Assembly (NCBI RefSeq): GCF_000027125.1
Contig: NC_017626.1
DNA length: 64,000 nt
Source: Escherichia coli 042
GTDB taxonomy: Bacteria > Pseudomonadota > Gammaproteobacteria > Enterobacterales > Enterobacteriaceae
Strand: one strand, 5' to 3'
Part shown: piece after piece, positions 3,211-48,989 of the stretch
Layout: every line of letters begins with the position of its first letter
Numbering within the stretch: the stretch's first letter is position 1
Translations under genes and position numbers: made by a program
Notes under the pieces: generated by a model
The model's database searches: none
Told to the model about the DNA's origin: nothing
The model's input: the letters and a program-made list of their open reading frames with translations, nothing else

Positions 3211-3501
3211 CCTGGCCTGAAGCATTAACAACGGTAGGAATTGCGATGGCGGTGGCGCTGGTGGTGTATTCGATTTGCCGCTGGGGATAAAAACGGTTTG
3301 CGGGAAAAGGAGAGTTAAGTAGAATTGCAGCGGGTGCTTGAGGCTATCTGTCTCAGGCATGAACACCAAAAGGCAGATAGAGAAAAGCCCCAGTTAACAT
3401 TACGCGTCCGGCAAGACGCTTAACATTAATCTGAGGCCATATCTATGCTCTACACACGTAGGTTAGCCTCTTACGTGCCGAAAGGCAAGGAGAAGCAGGC
3501 T

Positions 3502-7655: not shown

Positions 7656-8473
7656 AACTGGAAGATTTACCGAAATACTACTCCCCAAAATCCCCCGGCC
7701 TGACTGATGCATCGGCCTCAACGTCGAAAGATGCGCTGAGTATCACTGATGTGATGGCCGCGCAGGGCATGACACAGAATCGGGCTGAGATGGGGTTTTC
7801 TGCGTTCCTTGGGAAAATGGGCATTAGTATGAATGACAGAGAGCGGGCAACAGAATTGCTGACAGAATATGCACTCAGGCGGTGTGATCGCGTGGCGGCG
7901 TTAAGAAAACTCCCGGCAGAAATAAAACCGGCAGTGATGCGTATTATGGCTTCGTATGCGTTTGAAGATTATGCCCGTAGCGCGGCGAGCAAAAAACAGT
8001 GCTCCTGCTGTCACGGAAAAAAATTTATTGAAAGCGAGGTTTTTACAAACAAGATCCAGTATCCGGATGGTAAGCCGCCGGTATGGGCAAAGTGTACGAA
8101 AGGTGTGTATCCGTCTTACTGGGAAGAATGGAAAAAAGTCAGGGAGGTGGTAAAAGTTGCCTGTCCGGAGTGTGGCGGAAAGGGTGAGGTTTCCACCGCC
8201 TGTAAGGATTGCCGTGGGCGTGGTGTCGCCATTCATCGTGAAGAGTCGGTAAAACGTGGTATGCCTGTTATCAGAGACTGCCAGCGTTGTGGTGGTCGTG
8301 GCTGTGAAAGACTACCATCAACGGAGGCATTTAATGCCATATGCAAAGTGACGAGTGCTATCACGCTTGATACGTGGAAAAAATCAGTGAAACGCTTTTA
8401 CGATACGTTGGTGGTTCGGTTTGACATTGAAGAGGCATGGGCGGAGCGGCAGTTAAAGAGGGTAACGCGATAG
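7652..8473 (+). CDS. Late-gene antiterminator Q-like protein (QuuQ-type) with zinc fingers
   Basis: 273 aa with repeated CxxCxGxG motifs; follows rusA and precedes a terminator and the late region. Confidence 0.6.
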   Translation: MKLEDLPKYYSPKSPGLTDASASTSKDALSITDVMAAQGMTQNRAEMGFSAFLGKMGISMNDRERATELLTEYALRRCDRVAALRKLPAEIKPAVMRIMASYAFEDYARSAASKKQCSCCHGKKFIESEVFTNKIQYPDGKPPVWAKCTKGVYPSYWEEWKKVREVVKVACPECGGKGEVSTACKDCRGRGVAIHREESVKRGMPVIRDCQRCGGRGCERLPSTEAFNAICKVTSAITLDTWKKSVKRFYDTLVVRFDIEEAWAERQLKRVTR

Positions 8474-10146: not shown

Positions 10147-10222
10147 GGCCCTTTAGCTCAGTGGTGAGAGCGAGCGACTCATAATCGCCAGGTCGCTGGT
10201 TCAAATCCAGCAAGGGCCACCA
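10147..10222 (+). tRNA. ileZ: tRNA with CAT anticodon, Ile2 (lysidine)-type or Met
   Basis: 76-nt cloverleaf: acceptor ggccctt/aagggcc, T-arm gctgg-ttcaaat-ccagc, anticodon loop ctCATaa, 3' CCA; close to recalled E. coli tRNA-Ile2. Confidence 0.85.
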
Positions 10223-10229
10223 TCACATA

Positions 10230-10306
10230 CCGCCATTAGCTCATCAGGAAAGAGCGCCAGCCTTCGAAGCTGGTTGCGCGGAGTTCGGGTCCCCGAAGGC
10301 GGTCCA
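10230..10306 (+). tRNA. tRNA-Arg (anticodon TCG as read)
   Basis: 77-nt cloverleaf: anticodon stem ccagc/gctgg with loop ctTCGaa, 3' CCA; one mismatch each in acceptor and T stems. Confidence 0.6.
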
Positions 10307-10319
10307 TTATCTGTATCCT

Positions 10320-10396
10320 GCGTTGTTAGCTCAGCCGGACAGAGCAATTGCCTTCTAAGCAATCGGTCACTGGTTCGAATCCAGTACAACGCGCCA
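10320..10396 (+). tRNA. tRNA-Arg (anticodon TCT)
   Basis: 77-nt cloverleaf: acceptor gcgttgt/acaacgc, T-arm actgg-ttcgaat-ccagt, anticodon loop ctTCTaa, 3' CCA. Confidence 0.85.
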
Positions 10397-10440
10397 CACT
10401 TATTTTCCCTGGCTCGCTTTTGCGGGCTTTTTTTTAAATG

Positions 10441-10656
10441 TCTCACAATTCAGGCGGTTGACTGTTGTCTGGTTTGCGGGGAGTTTGTTAAAAGAAACTG
10501 GCATGGTGAATCCCCCTGTGCGGAGGGGCAATCAGCGAGTAGGTATATGGGATAATCGCGGATTCAGGTGCTGGTACTGAATTCACCGGGAGGCACCCGG
10601 CACCATGCAATGGCACATAGCGCCACTCTCCAGCCCCTCTCCGGAGGGGCTTTTCT
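10441..10656 (+). repeat. Structured repeat unit 1 (sRNA-like: promoter-like box, hairpins, terminator)
   Basis: Shares with unit 2 the blocks tcacaattcag, ttgac, ttgttaaaa, gcatggtgaatccccctg.gcggagggg, gtataat/ggataat, caccgggaggcacccggcaccatg and terminator gcccctctccggaggggc+T-run. Confidence 0.55.
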
Positions 10657-10908
10657 GTGCCGGATACATCACAGTTTCTGGAACCTTAGGTACTACAGTA
10701 TCAGTCAGGGTGCTATATTTTCAGATGTGATGAAAGCCTGTCAGCAGGCAGGGCGTATCGGAAATGACCCAGTAGAGAAAACGTTGACTCAGATACCGGT
10801 GCTGAGTTACCGGGAAACCGGCATCACATGACCGCTATCCTTCCAGGCCCATCCGCTCCGGTGGGCCTTTTTACTGCAGAAAACAGGTTCCCCGTTAAAT
10901 GCTATGTT

Positions 10909-11141
10909 GCTCACAATTCAGTAAGTTGACAGTTGCCTGTCAGACTGGGCATTTGTTAAAAAAATTTCGCATGGTGAATCCCCCTGAGCGGAGGGGCGAC
11001 TGGTGACGGTATAATCTCTGATTATCAAAACGAGAATGACGCGGGTTTAGTGGCACCGGACTGAACTCACCGGGAGGCACCCGGCACCATGTGCATGATG
11101 ATACAGATACGCGGCTTTAGCCCCTCTCCGGAGGGGCTTTC
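10909..11141 (+). repeat. Structured repeat unit 2 (sRNA-like)
   Basis: Second diverged copy of the same ~220-bp unit, with a perfect TATAAT at 11010-11015. Confidence 0.55.
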
Positions 11142-11371
11142 TTATGGACAAAAAAAGCCCGCGCTGGGAGACGCGGGCGGCAAGGAATAAACAATAAAAC
11201 GTGAAGTAATATTTCAGCTGGCGAATAATACCCCATAGTAATCACTCTGCGCAACTGCGCGGTCTTTTTCGAATTGCGGGCTGTAGTCTCCCTTCTGCCA
11301 TTGTCCTGTAACTTCCGGACTTCAGCCTGCTCCTTATCTGACTCACAACATTATCCCGCCCGGGAGGATTC

Positions 11372-13225
11372 ATGGCATTTAAACACTATGACGTGGTCAG
11401 GGCGGCATCGCCGTCAGACCTTGCGAAACGACTGACACAAAAACTGAAGGAGGGCTGGCAGCCGTTTGGTAGTCCGGTGGCCATAACCCCTTATACCCTG
11501 ATGCAGGCGATTGCAGCAGAAGGTGATGTGGTCGTCAGTGGTGCAACTGAGCCGGAGTGGTACTACGTCATCGTACTGGCCGGGCAATCCAATGCCATGG
11601 CTTACGGTGAAGGGCTTCCGCTTCCGGATTCATACGATGCGCCCCATCCGCGCATTAAGCAACTGGCCCGTCGTAACACAGTGACTCCCGGTGGTGAAGT
11701 ATGCGTATTTAACGACATCATTCCTGCTGACCATTGTCTGCATGATGTTCAGGATATGAGTACGATTAACCATCCCCGGGCTGACCTGAGCAAAGGGCAG
11801 TACGGCTGTGTCGGACAGGGCTTACATATTGCCAAAAAACTGCTTCCGTATATCCCTAATAATGCGGGGATCCTGCTGGTACCATGCTGTCGTGGTGGTT
11901 CGGCATTCACCCAGGGCACGGAGGGGACATTCAGCGAGTCCACGGGAGCCAGTCAGGATTCGGCTCGCTGGGGAGTGGGTAAGCCGTTATATCAGGATCT
12001 GCTTTTCCGCACGAAGGCAGCATTGCAGAAAAACCCGAAAAACGTTTTGCTGGCGATATGCTGGATGCAGGGGGAATTCGATATGACGAATGCCAGTTAC
12101 GCCCAGCAGCCAGCAGCATTTCTTGCAATGGTACAGCAGTTCCGTGCTGACCTTGCCGGGCTGGCAGCGCAGTGTCACGGTGGAAGTCCGGCATCAGTCC
12201 CCTGGATTTGTGGCGACACGACATACGCGTGGAAACAAGAACACGGTACGCAATATGAAGTGGTATATGGTGCATATAAAGGTAAAGAATCCCAGCAGAT
12301 TTATTTTGTTCCCTTTATGACCGATGGTAGCGGAGTTAATACACCGACAAACAACCCGTCAGAAGATCCTGATATTGCCGGGTCTGGTTATTACGGTTCG
12401 GCATCCCGAACGAACAAAAACTGGGTATCATCAAATCGCCCGACGCATTTCAGCTCATGGGCGCGTCGTGGCATTATTCCCGATCGTATGGCAACTGCTA
12501 TTCTGAACGTAGCCGGTCGCACCTTAGCCTTCATTAGTGGTAAGGCACCGGAAATCAAACCCTCGCCCGGCGGCGACACGCCATTGGGGCCGTCTGAAGA
12601 TGCATCCATACGCACAATCTCCCTGTTGCCGACAGCCGGAGACGCTGCTGCGCAGGGCTGGAGCATTAAGAATGGCGGAATTCAGTTGTCAGATGGTGTA
12701 TTTAAGATCACCAAGCAGAGCAATAAAGCCTGGTCCCTGACGCGCCCGGTGGATGACGCAGTCTCCCTGCTGACACGGGGTGGCAGACTGAGCTGTAAGT
12801 TTCGACTGTCAGGCGCACTGACCAACAATCAGTTCGGTCTGGGAATTTATCTGTATACCGATGTAGCGTTACCTGACGTCGTGGCGATGACCGGGACTGG
12901 TAACCCGTTCCTGATGTCGTTCTTCACCCAGACCACAGACGGCAAACTGAATCTGATGCATCACAAGAAAGCAGGAAACACAAAGTTGGGCGAGTTCGGG
13001 AATTACAGTAACGACTGGCAGACGCTGGAGCTGGTGTTCACCGCCGGCAGTGCCACGGTTACTCCGAAACTGAATGGAGTGGCTGGCCCGGCATTCCAGG
13101 TCATAAAAGACAGTCTGACACTGGGGCTGAATGCGCTGACGCTGACGGATATTACCAAAAATGCAGCGTATGGCGTTGAGATAGAAAGTCTGGTGCTGGA
13201 GATAAATGCACCGGCATCATCATAA
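11372..13225 (+). CDS. Phage NanS-p-like sialate O-acetylesterase (DUF1737 + SGNH hydrolase)
   Basis: 617 aa; N-terminal MAFKHYDVV... and GQSNAMAYGEG esterase motif; occupies the post-tRNA position before the lysis genes. Confidence 0.75.
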   Translation: MAFKHYDVVRAASPSDLAKRLTQKLKEGWQPFGSPVAITPYTLMQAIAAEGDVVVSGATEPEWYYVIVLAGQSNAMAYGEGLPLPDSYDAPHPRIKQLARRNTVTPGGEVCVFNDIIPADHCLHDVQDMSTINHPRADLSKGQYGCVGQGLHIAKKLLPYIPNNAGILLVPCCRGGSAFTQGTEGTFSESTGASQDSARWGVGKPLYQDLLFRTKAALQKNPKNVLLAICWMQGEFDMTNASYAQQPAAFLAMVQQFRADLAGLAAQCHGGSPASVPWICGDTTYAWKQEHGTQYEVVYGAYKGKESQQIYFVPFMTDGSGVNTPTNNPSEDPDIAGSGYYGSASRTNKNWVSSNRPTHFSSWARRGIIPDRMATAILNVAGRTLAFISGKAPEIKPSPGGDTPLGPSEDASIRTISLLPTAGDAAAQGWSIKNGGIQLSDGVFKITKQSNKAWSLTRPVDDAVSLLTRGGRLSCKFRLSGALTNNQFGLGIYLYTDVALPDVVAMTGTGNPFLMSFFTQTTDGKLNLMHHKKAGNTKLGEFGNYSNDWQTLELVFTAGSATVTPKLNGVAGPAFQVIKDSLTLGLNALTLTDITKNAAYGVEIESLVLEINAPASS

Positions 13226-13966: not shown

Positions 13967-14500
13967 ATGAGCGCAAAAATCAAATACGGCCTGTCAGCTG
14001 CTGTTCTGGCGCTGATTGCTGCAGGCGCGTCTGCTCCTCAGATACTTGACCAGTTTCTGGACGAAAAAGAGGGTAACCACACAACGGCATACCGCGATGG
14101 TTCCGGCATCTGGACCATCTGTCGGGGGGCCACGATGGTGGATGGAAAACCCGTTTTTCCCGGTATGAAACTGTCGAAGGAAAAATGCGACCAGGTCAAC
14201 GCCATTGAGCGTGATAAGGCGCTGGCATGGGTGGAGAAAAACATCAAAGTGCCATTGAGCGAACCCCAGAAAGCGGGGATCGCGTCATTCTGTCCGTACA
14301 ACATTGGTCCCGGTAAGTGTTTCCCGTCGACGTTTTATAAACGAATTAATGCAGGTGATCGCAGGGGAGCGTGTGAGGCGATTCGCTGGTGGATTAAGGA
14401 CGGTGGCAGAGACTGCCGTATTCGTTCAAACAACTGCTACGGTCAGGTATCCCGTCGTGACCAGGAGAGCGCGCTGGCGTGCTGGGGTATCGACAGATAA
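13967..14500 (+). CDS. SAR endolysin (phage lysozyme, R21-like)
   Basis: 177 aa; N-terminal signal-anchor LSAAVLALIAAGASAP followed by lysozyme fold, T4-lysozyme-like (GH24) family as recalled for R21. Confidence 0.85.
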   Translation: MSAKIKYGLSAAVLALIAAGASAPQILDQFLDEKEGNHTTAYRDGSGIWTICRGATMVDGKPVFPGMKLSKEKCDQVNAIERDKALAWVEKNIKVPLSEPQKAGIASFCPYNIGPGKCFPSTFYKRINAGDRRGACEAIRWWIKDGGRDCRIRSNNCYGQVSRRDQESALACWGIDR

Positions 14501-14659
14501 GCAGAATATTTTGCTGAAAAATAAGGCATGGCCACGCGGGCGGATAACATGAAATCCTGCGAAGTGGCGAAACGTAAGTGAATAAAAGTAAAAACCCCGT
14601 TTGTTGGCACCAAGCGGGGTTTTGTGTTTCCTGACTCCGGAAAAGTCAAAGGAGAAAGT

Positions 14660-14797
14660 GTGTTTGATTTTAGCAAACTGATTCGGGAGATTCGAGTGAT
14701 GGCTGAAAAATTATCCACCTGGAAGTTCATTCTTATCTGGCTGGTGTTTGTGATTATGGCCTCCGGTTATTTCATCGGTCAGATACGCTGGTGGTGA
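14660..14797 (+). CDS. Possible small membrane protein between R and Rz
   Basis: GTG 14660 (or ATG 14699) after GGAG; hydrophobic [20 protein letters not shown]; stop overlaps Rz start. Confidence 0.25.
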
Positions 14798-14798
14798 A

Positions 14799-15263
14799 AT
14801 GAACCGCGTACTGTGCGTGGTCATCATTGCCCTGCTGGTGGCCTGTGGTGCGCTTAGTCTGGGGCTGAATCATTACCGTGATAACGCCATTACCTACAAA
14901 GCCCAGCGCGACAAAAATGTCAGAGAACTGAAGCTGGCGAACGCGGCAATTACTGACATGCAGATGCGTCAGCGTGATGTTGCTGCGCTCGATGCAAAAT
15001 ACACGAAGGAGTTAGCTGATGCGAAAGCTGAAAATGATGCTCTGCGTGATGATGTTGCCGCTGGTCGTCGTCGGTTGCACATCAAAGCAGTCTGTCAGTC
15101 AGTGCGTGAAGCCACCACCGCCTCCGGCGTGGATAATGCAGCCTCCCCCCGACTGGCAGACACCGCTGAACGGGATTATTTCACCCTCAGAGCGCGACTG
15201 ATAATAATGCAAAAACAACTTGAAGGGGCACAGCTATACATTCGAGAGCAATGCCTCAGATAA
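14799..15263 (+). CDS. Rz: Rz i-spanin
   Basis: 154 aa, near-identical over most of its length to recalled lambda Rz ([17 protein letters not shown]...). Confidence 0.9.
15019..15201 (+). CDS. Rz1: Rz1 o-spanin lipoprotein, embedded in Rz in +1 frame
   Basis: 60 aa with lipobox VVGC and proline-rich [20 protein letters not shown] as in lambda Rz1. Confidence 0.85.
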
Positions 15264-15570
15264 AAACCGGCCAAGGATAATCCGCTGAAGATTCGCCGGT
15301 GGCTAAAGTGTGCCAAGAGTTCAATTTACGCAATTACTCCTGTCGATGCTATGCACCGTCTTTGTGAAGTCAATGGATACCTGATTTATTTCTGTGCGCT
15401 GTATCGTCGCTGTACTCTTGCATTAATTATGACTGTAGCCTGACGGGGAACTCCTTCTGCACAAGTGTGGGGGAATAATCAAAAACGATGCACACCGGGG
15501 TTACCGGGTACACATATTTCATCATGCCAGCGAGTCCGGTTCTGGTACGGAAGAAACCGGACGTTATGAT

Positions 15571-15996
15571 TTAGTGCGGAAATATTTGTGTAGTGTTCTG
15601 AATGTTCTCAGTAAAGAGTAATGAATTATCAAAGGTATAGTAATATCTTTTGTTTTCGTGGATATTTGTAATCCATCTGAAAACCCCTGCTGTAGCAAGA
15701 TTTTTCCTGTATTCGTAAAATGATAACTCTCCTGATTTGAATCCTTTTAAGGTGGCTTCTATAAGGCATTTATTTTTTGAAAATCTTACATTTACAACCT
15801 TACCCTGTCCTTTTATTAAAACCGTATTATCGTTTTCAAGAACAAGATGAATATTCTCTGTGGCTAAATAGTAAATGTAATGTGAGACATTGTGACGTTT
15901 TAGTTCAGAATAAAACCAGTGATAGTTTAAATTATTTCGCACTTTATCGAATATTTGTTTAAAAATGGCAACCTGAGCCATTGTAGTACCTTCCAT
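15571..15996 (-). CDS. Hypothetical cargo protein, possibly DUF1398/YbcV-like
   Basis: 141-aa AT-rich ORF on the minus strand between Rz and cos, the position of bor in lambda. Confidence 0.45.
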
Positions 15997-16038
15997 GTGA
16001 TATGAGGGGGCGTAGTCTGCACGATTATCTAAATTGCT

Positions 16039-16272
16039 TCAATCTGGTCTGACCTGTTTTCTGAGCAATTCAGTAATGTCACTCTTTTCTTTGTTTGCTT
16101 CAGGCGAAACTCTTTTTTCTGAGCACAGTCTCCGGCGGCAGGCTTCAATGACCCAGGCTGAGAAATTCCCGGACCCTTTTTGAACAAGAGCGATGTTAAT
16201 TTGTTCAATCATTTGGTTAGGAAAGCGGATGTTGCGGGTTGTTGTTCTGCGGGTTCTGTTCTTCGTTGACAT
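16039..16272 (-). CDS. Ribbon-helix-helix (Arc/MetJ-like) DNA-binding protein
   Basis: 77 aa; basic N-terminus then NIRFPNQMIEQINIALVQKG...FSAWVIEACRRRL resembles the RHH beta-strand plus two helices. Confidence 0.5.
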   Translation of the reverse strand: MSTKNRTRRTTTRNIRFPNQMIEQINIALVQKGSGNFSAWVIEACRRRLCSEKRVSPEANKEKSDITELLRKQVRPD

Positions 16273-16471
16273 GAGGTTGCCCTGTATTCAGTGTCGCTGA
16301 TTTGTATTGTCTGAAGTTGTTTTTACGTTAGGTTGATGCAGATCAATTAATACGATACCTGCGTCATAATTGATTATTTGACGTGGTTTGATGGCCTCCA
16401 CGCACGTTGTGATATGTAGATGATAATCATTATCGCTTTACGGGTCCTTTCCGGTGATCCGACAGGTTACG

Positions 16472-16483
16472 GGGCGGCGACCT
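16472..16483 (+). other. cos: cos site (cosN 12-nt cohesive end) with cosB downstream
   Basis: cgggtcctttccggtgatccgacaggttacg / gggcggcgacct cgcgg...tatttatgaaaatttt matches the lambda genome ends as I recall them. Confidence 0.8.
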
Positions 16484-16659
16484 CGCGGTTTTTCACTATT
16501 TATGAAAATTTTTCAGGGAAAATCGTGTCGGTACTTCTCGAATATAACTTTTTGTTTTTTTTAATATTACATCCGTAAAGGTCCGACATGAAAGTGTCCG
16601 AAAATGACTTTTTCTGGCGTTTTCATGTCGGGCCTTGTATTTGATAATGGGTTGTTTTC

Positions 16660-17208
16660 ATGAAGGTTAATAAAAAGAGGCTTGCCGAAATTTTCAACGT
16701 GGACCCGCGGACGATTGAACGCTGGCAGTCTCAGGGACTCCCTTGCGCCTCCAAAGGTAGTAAGGGCATTGAATCTGTATTTGATACTGCCATGGCAATT
16801 CAGTGGTATGCGCAGAGGGAAACTGATATCGAAAACGAAAAGCTCCGCAAAGAACTGGACGATTTGCGTGCGGCAGCGGAGTCAGATTTACAACCCGGCA
16901 CCATTGACTATGAACGCTACCGGCTCACAAAAGCGCAGGCAGATGCGCAGGAACTGAAAAATGCCCGTGAAGACGGAGTAGTGCTGGAAACTGAACTGTT
17001 TACCTTCATTCTGCAACGTGTGGCACAGGAGATTTCGGGGATACTTGTGCGTGTGCCGTTGACATTACAGCGTAAATATTCGGACATTTCACCATCACAC
17101 CTTGATGTGGTGAAAACTGAAATCGCGAAAGCCTCCAATGTTGCAGCTAAGGCCGGTGAAAACGTGGGCGGGTGGATCGATGATTTCAGACGCGCAGAAG
17201 GCAGCTAA
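16660..17208 (+). CDS. nu1: Terminase small subunit Nu1
   Basis: 182 aa [12 protein letters not shown]...IENEKL, lambda Nu1-like N-terminal HTH. Confidence 0.9.
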
Positions 17209-47393: not shown

Positions 47394-48989
47394 TTACCCT
47401 CGTGCCGCCAGTGCGGTGACTCTGTCGTAAGCGGAACCACTGCGCAGTACCTCAAGAACGGTTTGCGCATTGGCTTGCAGATCTTCATGGCCATGCAGGC
47501 GCATTAACATGGCGACATTCGCCGCGACGGCTGCTTCATGGGCGGCGTCGCCTTTACCTTGTAACAAGCGTGTTAAAATGTCACGGTTTTCTTCCGGTGT
47601 TCCGCCTGCCAGTTGCTCCTGGTGGTAGGGTGTCAGGCCAAAATCTTCTGCAGTTAGCTGATAGCTCTTAATTTCACCGTCATGCAGTTCGGCAACGATT
47701 GTCGGCGCGTGTAATGAAACTTCATCCATCCCGCCGCTGTGCACTACCGCAGCGCGTTGATACCCCAGCACGCGCAAGGTTTCGGCAATCGGCAGCACCA
47801 GTTCCGGACTATAAACACCAATTAGCGCCAGCGGCGGATGCGCCGGGTTAATCAATGGCCCCAGCACATTGAACAGGGTGCGGGTTTTCAGTTGCTGGCG
47901 AACCGGCATCGCGTGGCGGAATCCGGTGTGATATTTCGGCGCAAAGAGGAAACAGACGCCTAACTCATCCAGCGCCTGGCGCGATTTATCGGCGTTCATA
48001 TCAAGATTAATACCGAACGCCGCCAGCAGATCCGACGAGCCGGATTTACTGGAGACGCTACGGTTGCCGTGTTTCGCCACTTTCAGCCCACAGGCCGCGG
48101 CGACAAAAGCACTGGCGGTAGAAATATTGATACTGTTGCTGCCGTCACCACCGGTACCGACGATATCGGCAAACAGATAATCCGGGCGCGGGAACGGCGC
48201 GGCGTTTTCCAGTAGCGCGGTTGCTGCTCCGGCGATTTCGTTTGGGTGCTCGCCGCGAATTTTCATGCTTACCAGAGCCGCCGCGAGCTGTTCTGGCTTC
48301 AGCTCGCCATGCACCACTGCTGAAAACAGCTGGTGGCTTTCTTGCTGGCTAAGCGTCTGCGCCTGATACAGTTTTTCCAGAATCGGTTGCAGCGTGTTAG
48401 TCGGTTCCAGTTTCTGCTGCGCCCAGGCCAATGTTTGTTCCAGCAGGCGAGCGCCCTGGGTAGTAAGAATGGATTCCGGATGGAACTGGAATCCACAAAC
48501 GCGATCTGCATCGTGACGCACTGCCATCACCATGCCATTAAAATGGGCGTTGATGGTTAAACCGGCCGGAATGTTACTGCCAACCAGCGAGTGATAACGC
48601 GCCACTGGCAGCGGGTTTGTTAATCCGGCAAACATCGCCTGACCGTCGTGTTCAATGCTGGAGGCTTTACCGTGAAGAATTTCGCCCGCCTGACCGACAT
48701 ACCCCCCATAAGCTTCGACAATCGCCTGATGACCGAGGCAAATGCCAATAATAGCCAGCTTGCCGCGCAGGCGGGTGAGGAGTTCCGGCATACAACCGGC
48801 TTCGCTTGGCACTCCGGGGCCAGGAGAAAGCATCAGCACCGGATTGCTCATCGTCGCCAGGCGTTCAATTAAAGTCTGCGCCGGAATATGGTTGCGGTAA
48901 ATCACCACGTTATGACCATTGCTGCGCAACTGATCTGCCAGGTTGTAAGTAAAAGAGTCGATATTATCGAGCAGCAGAATGTCAGCCAT
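47394..48989 (-). CDS. trpD: Anthranilate synthase component II / anthranilate phosphoribosyltransferase
   Basis: 531 aa [17 protein letters not shown]... Confidence 0.97.

Follow-up and report, generated by a model that had tools for sequence, protein, structure and literature searches.

Two small protein families of lambda-like phages are relevant to the locus described here, the DUF1398 proteins (YdfO, YbcV, and p78 of phage lambda) and the YlcI/YnfO proteins. The lambda gene lambdap78 (47042-47575c) is a DUF1398 homologue with a 5' end that is over-extended in the annotation. Lambda additionally carries ylcI, a 64-aa ORF at 48109-48303c that is absent from the reference annotation and whose first 50 residues are nearly identical to those of the protein described below. 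The structure of E. coli YdfO was solved by NMR (PDB 2HH8) and features an internally duplicated (alpha2-beta3)x2 alpha/beta platform, an orphan fold without a catalytic signature. A genomic-SELEX site for PdhR has been reported inside K-12 ynfO/ydfO, and a pdhR mutation lowers ybcV mRNA 10-fold (PMC7660256). An imidazolium ionic liquid induces ydfO 12- to 116-fold, and overexpression of this gene has been linked to raised oxidative-stress resistance (PMC4077768). CRISPRi knock-down of lambdap78 did not affect lambda plating (PMC10695390). A literature search with the names DUF1398 and DUF3950 found no study that defines the function of either family. Both genes belong to the right end of the best-studied phage, and the lambda reference omits one of them.

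The window analysed here is a stretch of 64,000 nucleotides from Escherichia coli 042 (NC_017626.1), and it contains one gene of each family between Rz and cos. The best-supported description is that this pair is the already annotated, ordinary ydfO/ynfO (ybcV/ylcI) set, which is neither a novel module nor a toxin-antitoxin pair. We favor, with moderate confidence, the reading that these are two separately transcribed accessory ("moron"-type) genes of the lambda right end, one coding for a small DNA-binding repressor and the other for a host-regulated soluble cytoplasmic protein.

Layout of the right-end locus

The late region of the window runs from tRNA genes and a gene for a 617-aa SASA-family esterase through holin and lysozyme (13967..14500), Rz (14799..15263, with Rz1 embedded within it), and the two ORFs under study to a nu1-like gene (16660..17208), the large-terminase gene, and then the head and tail genes. 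The packaging and morphogenesis genes of this prophage are intact. The two minus-strand ORFs were confirmed at 15571..15981 and 16039..16272, both between Rz and a lambda-type cos, and they are 57 bp apart on the same strand. The features of the locus are listed below.

15481..15515, minus strand: hairpin followed by UUUUU, at which the minus-strand transcript may end (RNA fold, z-score -2.7 for a 131-nt stretch)
15571..15981, minus strand: DUF1398 gene of the ydfO/ybcV/lambdap78 type, 136 aa (Pfam, similarity to PDB 2HH8)
15989..15994, minus strand: GGAAGG Shine-Dalgarno sequence, 7 nt upstream of the ATG at 15981 (read from the sequence)
16014..16042, minus strand: putative DUF1398 promoter with a -35 TTGAAG at 16042-16037, a 17-nt spacer, and a -10 CAGACT at 16019-16014
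16039..16272, minus strand: gene of the ynfO/ylcI family, 77 aa (Pfam PF13132, NCBIfam NF041551)
16042..16058, minus strand: palindromic box AACAGGTCAGACCAGAT with the core GGTCAGACC at 16046-16054, an exact match to a PdhR SELEX site
16110..16471, no strand assigned: lambda right-end block, 97% identical to lambda 48141-48502 (blastn)
16342..16374, no strand assigned: inverted repeat ATCAATTAATACG / CGTCATAATTGAT, a candidate operator or promoter element (repeat search)
16472..16483, plus strand: 12-nt cohesive end of cosN, GGGCGGCGACCT (read from the sequence)

The lambda right-end block takes in the N-terminal coding part of ylcI, the DNA upstream of this gene, and cos on its cosQ side. The lambda alignment ends at 16471, therefore the cohesive end GGGCGGCGACCT is located at 16472-16483, and the ynfO start codon lies 199 bp from cosN. 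A terminator scan predicted no terminator between ynfO and the DUF1398 gene. The same scan did not call the hairpin at 15481..15515, which is located 60-90 nt downstream of the DUF1398 stop codon. A search of Rfam at a permissive threshold over 15000-17000 gave nothing but matches to eukaryotic miRNAs on the cosB side, all of them sub-threshold and taken as noise.

The original prediction was of an AT-rich, minus-strand gene pair at the position where lambda carries bor. Both genes are real, as is evident from their Pfam matches (E 3.9e-43 and 3.7e-20) and their low dN/dS. The description as AT-rich holds for the DUF1398 gene (31% GC) and does not hold for ynfO, which has 45% GC compared with 51% for the whole window. 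The reference to bor is misleading, because lambda has bor together with homologues of both genes, and the window merely lacks bor and ybcW. The pair does have the hallmarks of a moron, a separate transcription unit of atypical composition in the late region, in that it lies on the strand opposite to Rz and nu1, the GC content of the DUF1398 gene is low, and this gene is preceded by a conserved, putative promoter block.

The DUF1398 gene and its upstream block

The Pfam DUF1398 model (PF07166) matches the downstream protein over its full length (E 3.9e-43, model positions 1-119 of 119). The protein is ~78% identical to YdfO and has the YdfO fold as in PDB 2HH8, which bears out the earlier, uncertain suggestion that the gene is DUF1398/YbcV-like. 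The predicted ORF of 141 aa is also real, however, its start codon was probably placed 5 codons too far upstream. The second ATG at 15981, which gives a protein of 136 aa, is preferred over the ATG at 15996 because the GGAAGG sequence lies 7 nt upstream of it, the first ATG is without a Shine-Dalgarno sequence, and every distant homologue begins at the equivalent methionine. The ATG at 15981 is also the RefSeq/PGAP start, and the GGAAGG is kept in the lambda, Qin, and DLP12-like copies.

The near-invariant residues of the family are L27, T41, G99, Y35, N43, W103, and Y114, and to judge by their type they do not suggest catalysis. A Foldseek search of AFDB50 with the YdfO fold returned 237 clusters at E<=1e-3, and this fold family consists of stand-alone proteins of ~130 aa in Bacteroidota, Firmicutes, and Proteobacteria. 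Neither the DUF1398 protein nor YnfO has a hydrophobic segment, and both are soluble. The labels "head protein" (PHROG 413) and "putative envelope protein" (the lambda annotation) were ruled out, since the protein combines solubility with an orphan cytoplasmic fold and its gene lies outside the head gene block. NCBIfam gave only TrpE noise for this protein, far under the cut-off.

The region upstream of the DUF1398 gene features a conserved block. The putative -35 element overlaps the ynfO stop codon, and both hexamers with their exact 17-nt spacing are kept in the window, in Qin ydfO, in lambda p78, and in a ycgX-like paralogue with 44% protein identity. The block common to all copies down to this paralogue is an invariant ATTGAA, the 17-nt spacer, and CA-N-ACT. 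The homology between the Qin-type and lambda-type loci starts exactly at AGGTCAGACCAGATTGAA, ~75 bp upstream of the DUF1398 ATG. From this conservation we infer that the 5' block is a weak promoter of the DUF1398 gene itself, with transcription starting near 16007. The proposed promoter has only 4/6 and 3/6 consensus matches and falls below the threshold of a promoter consensus scan, which called no minus-strand promoter upstream of either gene. No conserved RNA structure was found in the block (-3.6 kcal/mol).

The palindromic box AACAGGTCAGACCAGAT sits just upstream of the putative -35 element. This 17-mer is an exact copy of the K-12 ynfO/ydfO PdhR site, and its core GGTCAGACC is kept upstream of lambda p78 and ybcV. 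In the proposed mechanism the DUF1398 gene would be read from its own weak promoter, which is flanked by the GGTCAGACC box. PdhR, the host pyruvate sensor, binds the box in the K-12 homologues and may exert the same control in the window prophage. For the DUF1398 protein, binding to a host partner or ligand is probable, as is a modulating effect on the stress or carbon physiology of the lysogen. Expression of the pair apart from the late operon, which had been proposed from the sequence, is plausible given the opposite orientation of the two genes and the host regulation of their homologues in K-12 cryptic prophages (PMC7660256, PMC4077768).

YnfO and its probable ribbon-helix-helix fold

YnfO matches Pfam DUF3950 (PF13132) with an E-value of 3.7e-20 over model positions 1-30 of 30, and NCBIfam YlcI_YnfO_N (NF041551) with 35.2 bits, for a cut-off of 30. 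The protein divides into a conserved basic domain (residues 1-52) and a variable tail (residues 53-77). Across alleles the first ~50 residues hardly change, and the tails differ. YnfO as a whole is very basic, with a pI of 10.9. Its variable tail is probably a product of recombination at the 3' end of ynfO/ylcI.

The suggestion that the upstream protein is an Arc-like ribbon-helix-helix (RHH) protein is plausible. The AF2 model features a non-helical segment at residues 1-18 and helices at 19-32 and 34-54, with a core pLDDT of ~87. This model is of a monomer (pTM 0.37), and the RHH strand forms only in the dimer. The two helices are joined by the turn K32-G33-S34-G35, so that YnfO has the order of strand, helix A, G-x-[ST] turn, and helix B that is found in RHH proteins, with residues 1-18 as the putative strand. 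hhalign gave YnfO a probability of 44% (pairwise E 2.3e-4) against a set of eight RHH proteins (Arc, Mnt, AmrZ, CopG, NikR, ParD, FitA, and RelB) that was typed by hand and whose identities were verified against the PDB. Against Arc, Mnt, and AmrZ alone the probability was 38%, and both alignments are in the correct register. In the gap-free alignment of YnfO 13-39 with Arc 10-36, RNIRFP falls on FNLRWP of Arc, which pairs N14 with N11, R16 with R13, and F17-P18 with W14-P15. N11 and R13 are base-contacting residues of Arc.

HMMER searches of the PDB with the single YnfO sequence and with its profile gave no match, and a Foldseek search of the PDB with the monomer model (pTM 0.37) gave nothing usable. 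The HMM searches that had been proposed as a check identified the DUF1398 and DUF3950 families and, for YnfO, no Pfam RHH family at E<=10. Because HMMER and Foldseek found nothing, the N-terminal domain of YnfO is considered likely but not proven to be an Arc-type ribbon-helix-helix. If it is, the N-terminal 50 residues would form an RHH dimer that binds DNA through a beta-ribbon carrying N14 and R16 and that acts as a transcriptional repressor.

A 13-nt inverted repeat at 16342-16374 is located 70-100 bp upstream of the ynfO start and is kept in the lambda and O121 copies; taken alone this repeat is not statistically compelling. A consensus scan found no consensus sigma-70 promoter upstream of ynfO. 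A comparison of the upstream regions of lambda-type and YYZ-type ylcI genes for a shared operator found only 7-mers at chance level. A tblastn match of YlcI to Pasteurella phage Pmp7 (41% identity) is antisense to an annotated repressor gene and was taken as spurious.

Selection, linkage, and comparison with known systems

Pairwise Nei-Gojobori comparisons of the DUF1398 genes of the window, lambda, O157 (ybcV), and K-12 (ydfO) gave dN/dS of 0.18-0.39 at dS of 0.36-0.64. For the N-terminal 50 codons of ylcI compared with the YYZ-2008 allele, the same method gave dN/dS of 0.08-0.11 at dS of 0.74-0.90. Both genes are under purifying selection and are thus functional. Because the low dN/dS relative to YYZ-2008 is found in different flanks, ylcI is kept as a protein and not as mere cos-proximal DNA. 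These values make it barely credible that the two genes are non-functional, hitch-hiking ORFs that are retained through their closeness to cos. In favor of hitch-hiking, no function has been assigned to the genes and plaque formation does not require lambdap78, however, dN/dS is well below 1 for both genes, that of ylcI being so low at a dS of ~0.8 in different flanks, and DUF1398 is conserved across phyla.

The 1-kb region was matched in 4,234 of 5,426 complete E. coli genomes (78%). It also matched 155 phage records, among them lambda, HK629/630, DE3, and numerous Stx phages. A 5.8-kb stretch is 100% identical to a RefSeq-annotated prophage in the chromosome of an E. coli blood isolate, where the genes are labeled "DUF1398 domain-containing protein" (136 aa) and "ynfO: YlcI/YnfO family protein". 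With their presence in lambda and in this number of E. coli genomes, the two genes are in essence ubiquitous, conserved lambdoid genes, an outcome that the original prediction had named as counting against it; they are nevertheless accessory and not essential.

The two genes also occur apart. Megablast located the ylcI N-terminus with its upstream block at 8,377 places in 3,786 E. coli genomes and the DUF1398 gene at 3,409 places in 2,716 E. coli genomes, a ratio of ~2.5 to 1, and by tblastn 155 phage records contain YlcI and 43 contain DUF1398. ylcI is found alone in an O121 prophage, in the order Rha pseudogene, ylcI, cos, and small terminase gene, and in YYZ-2008, where it lies beside HNH and small-terminase genes and has unrelated upstream DNA. 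Conversely, the DUF1398 homologues with 25-44% identity stand by themselves in the chromosome, behind long upstream intergenic regions, and the ycgX-like gene next to bluR is one of these homologues. A YlcI profile matched 0 of the 124 ORFs that neighbor DUF1398 homologues; this negative result rests on the YlcI-specific profile, since a generic RHH HMM built from the eight proteins gives YnfO itself only 2.3 bits. In IMG/VR, ynfO and the DUF1398 gene are adjacent in 155 of 155 viral loci with enough flank, all of them near-identical copies, so that these scans added no distant contexts. At the end that is packaged last and injected first, the first gene facing inward is always ylcI, and the putative DNA-reading strand of its product is invariant across phages with unrelated upstream DNA.

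Read-through or co-transcription from ynfO into the DUF1398 gene, and with it a functional coupling of the two, is possible in the Qin-type arrangement because the genes are 57 bp apart, no terminator is predicted between them, and they are adjacent in all of these IMG/VR loci. The evidence is against an obligate coupling of the two genes. The original prediction of an antitoxin-toxin or regulator-effector operon is not supported, because the genes are often separate, ybcW lies between them in lambda and DLP12, the DUF1398 gene has its own promoter-like 5' block, and no toxin or defence family was identified. A regulator-effector operon without toxin activity, an autoregulated lysogenic-conversion unit in which YnfO represses its own promoter, the DUF1398 promoter, or both, is unlikely. 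It would account for two adjacent genes on the same strand with no terminator between them, for the overlap of the ynfO stop codon with the putative DUF1398 -35 element and the palindrome just upstream, and for the constant adjacency in the near-identical viral loci with enough flank, and RHH proteins such as Arc, Mnt, and CopG are typically repressors. However, the palindrome and the promoter block go with the DUF1398 gene even where ylcI is 600 bp away on the far side of an opposite-strand gene (lambda, DLP12) or absent (the ycgX-like gene), and in K-12 the box is bound by PdhR. Additionally, most ylcI copies have no DUF1398 partner, and the ylcI of YYZ-2008 has an identical DNA-reading strand yet unrelated upstream DNA. 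A type II toxin-antitoxin system, in which an RHH antitoxin (YnfO) neutralizes a DUF1398 toxin, is very unlikely. A small RHH gene followed by a larger gene at a spacing of 57 bp resembles toxin-antitoxin operons, and a HicB-like PHROG family was matched weakly (E 0.055), but neither protein matches a toxin, antitoxin, or defence family in Pfam, NCBIfam, or PADLOC, and PHROGs likewise gave no toxin family; a PADLOC match to Csx23 (E 0.025) is noise. The conserved DUF1398 residues are not catalytic in type, and the tail of YnfO, the part expected to bind a toxin, is variable and modeled with low confidence. DUF1398 genes are often solitary and their fold family is widespread as stand-alone cellular proteins, ylcI is often solitary as well, so that the homologues are not obligatorily linked as one operon, and the opposite-strand ybcW splits the pair in lambda and DLP12. 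No lethality was reported when E. coli was made to overproduce YdfO and YbcV, for NMR and in the ASKA collection (PMC2853380), which suggests that they are tolerated.

A role for YlcI/YnfO that is tied to the DNA end, either by binding near cos for packaging, circularization, or phage exclusion or as a first-expressed gene, is a long shot. It would fit the location of ylcI, which is always at the lysis/packaging junction, 199 bp from cosN in the lambda-type loci and beside the HNH and small-terminase genes in YYZ-2008, and the unusual uniformity of the ylcI-cos block (16110..16471), which is 95-99% identical in 3,400 of the 3,796 matching E. coli records. The right end of lambda is also the end that enters the cell first. 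Morons such as bor, however, are generally inserted at the lysis/packaging junction, which means that position alone proves little, and the uniformity is explicable by linkage to cos. A minimal cos of ~200 bp is enough for cosmid packaging without ylcI, and ylcI is antisense to the late transcript. An even longer shot is that YlcI/YnfO is an Arc-like repressor whose conserved position matters for its function, that acts on entry, or from the prophage on the incoming ends of related phages, and that maybe gates DUF1398 in the Qin-type arrangement. If this were true, a prophage YlcI could block circularization, packaging, or early transcription of related phages. The reading as two separately transcribed accessory genes of the lambda right end is preferred. 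Concrete and cheap experimental leads are the Arc-like strand of YlcI and the PdhR-type box in the conserved block 5' of the DUF1398 gene.

The closest known arrangement is that of ydfO-ynfO in the K-12 Qin prophage. The window resembles Qin in both families, their order, strand, and spacing, and their site, which has the lysis genes on one side and nohA/cos on the other; DNA identity over the region is ~90%, and the PdhR-type box is identical. The DUF1398 allele differs, with ~78% protein identity and a dN of 0.14, and Qin is a remnant whereas the packaging and morphogenesis genes of the window are intact. In lambda and DLP12 the genes occupy the same right-end place, identity is 97% over the N-terminal domain of ylcI and its upstream DNA as far as cosN, and the DUF1398 5' block is kept. 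Two features of lambda and DLP12 are missing from the window, namely bor, downstream of the DUF1398 gene, and a 614-bp insert with the opposite-strand ybcW (lambdap79) between the DUF1398 gene and ylcI. Their YlcI also differs, with 64 aa and another tail, and their DUF1398 protein is 76% identical to that of the window. P22 Arc and Mnt are, like YnfO, small phage proteins, and YnfO shares with Arc the N-x-R-[FW]-P motif and two helices of matching length, but the similarity is marginal (38-44% hhalign probability) and the window has no ant-type target gene. As with bor and other late morons of lambda, the two genes of the window are opposite-strand accessory genes between Rz and cos; the atypical composition of the DUF1398 gene and the dispensability of its lambda homologue lambdap78 for lytic growth are further points in common. 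Bor, in contrast, is an outer-membrane lipoprotein with a serum-resistance phenotype, whereas the two proteins of the window are cytoplasmic.

The conserved block upstream of DUF1398 genes

The DUF1398 genes are preceded by a conserved 5' block, and the block in the window overlaps the PdhR-type box, an exact match to a K-12 PdhR SELEX site (PMC7660256). The two elements are as follows.

Window 16007-16058, minus strand: conserved 5' block preceding DUF1398 genes, ~50 bp long (CAGACCAGATTGAA ... TGCAnACTACGC); also present at 3920-4000 of L006, a compared locus.
Window 16029-16073: 10-nt inverted repeat, CTAAATTGCT / AGCAATTCAG, flanking the PdhR-type box on both sides at the ynfO 3' end.

The 5' block is more conserved than the coding sequence, even for the ycgX-like paralogue that adjoins bluR, which suggests from sequence comparison that it is a common regulatory element. 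In K-12, PdhR SELEX sites coincide with this block. The inverted repeat is found only at the Qin-type junction, where ydfO and ynfO are adjacent, and lambda does not have it.

The DUF1398 fold also occurs within larger Bacteroidota proteins among the AFDB50 matches, which are putative fusions; one of them is annotated as a cofactor-independent phosphoglycerate mutase.

A0A1G4V648: 638 aa.
A0A1G9G8I9: 401 aa.
A0A840KBN5: 264 aa.

Taken together, the putative fusions, the PdhR binding, and the glycogen phenotype of ybcV in the ASKA collection hint that the DUF1398 family is tied to central carbon metabolism.

Lambda annotation and apparently lambda-derived database entries

The lambda reference record NC_001416 labels lambdap78, its DUF1398 gene, a 'head protein' of 177 aa, whereas translation from the conserved start yields 136 aa; the idea that lambdap78 is a head or envelope protein was rejected, as no evidence supports it. 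The same record leaves a YlcI/YnfO ORF without annotation.

L001 (the lambda stretch) 2673-2867, lambda 48109-48303, complement: YlcI/YnfO ORF, 64 aa.

Hundreds of ENA contigs, each ~3.5 kb long, contain the right end of lambda with errors dispersed through it, and its proteins also appear under the labels Staphylococcus, Bacillus, Klebsiella, and spider. The suspect entries are listed below.

Protein matches: P0020-P0120 and P0139-P0239.
Phage records: OR974317-25.
'Campylobacter phage CJLB-4': MW057783.

The suspect entries look like mislabelled lambda or contamination by lambda control DNA, namely the 3.6-kb amplicon used as a nanopore control, and they swell the counts of both the DUF1398 and YlcI/YnfO families in metagenome databases.

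Neighbouring genes and the gaps around Rz

Upstream of the holin, window 10147-13225 features a tRNA-Met/Arg/Arg cluster, ~1 kb of sequence, and a 617-aa SASA-family (NanS-p-like) esterase. In an identical RefSeq locus, the kilobase between the cluster and the esterase carries a DUF3927 gene and an IraM anti-adapter gene (minus strand). In Stx phages, stx presumably sits at the place of this region.

Rz is flanked by two non-coding gaps of ~300 bp each.

Window 14500-14799: non-coding gap.
Window 15264-15570: non-coding gap.

Window 15394-15570 shares homology with the spacer that separates bor from p78 in lambda; at the sequence level, this fits a clean loss or absence of morons (ant/rha, bor) in the window. 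The corresponding positions are occupied by ant or rha in the related prophages YYZ-2008 and O121, and by bor in lambda.
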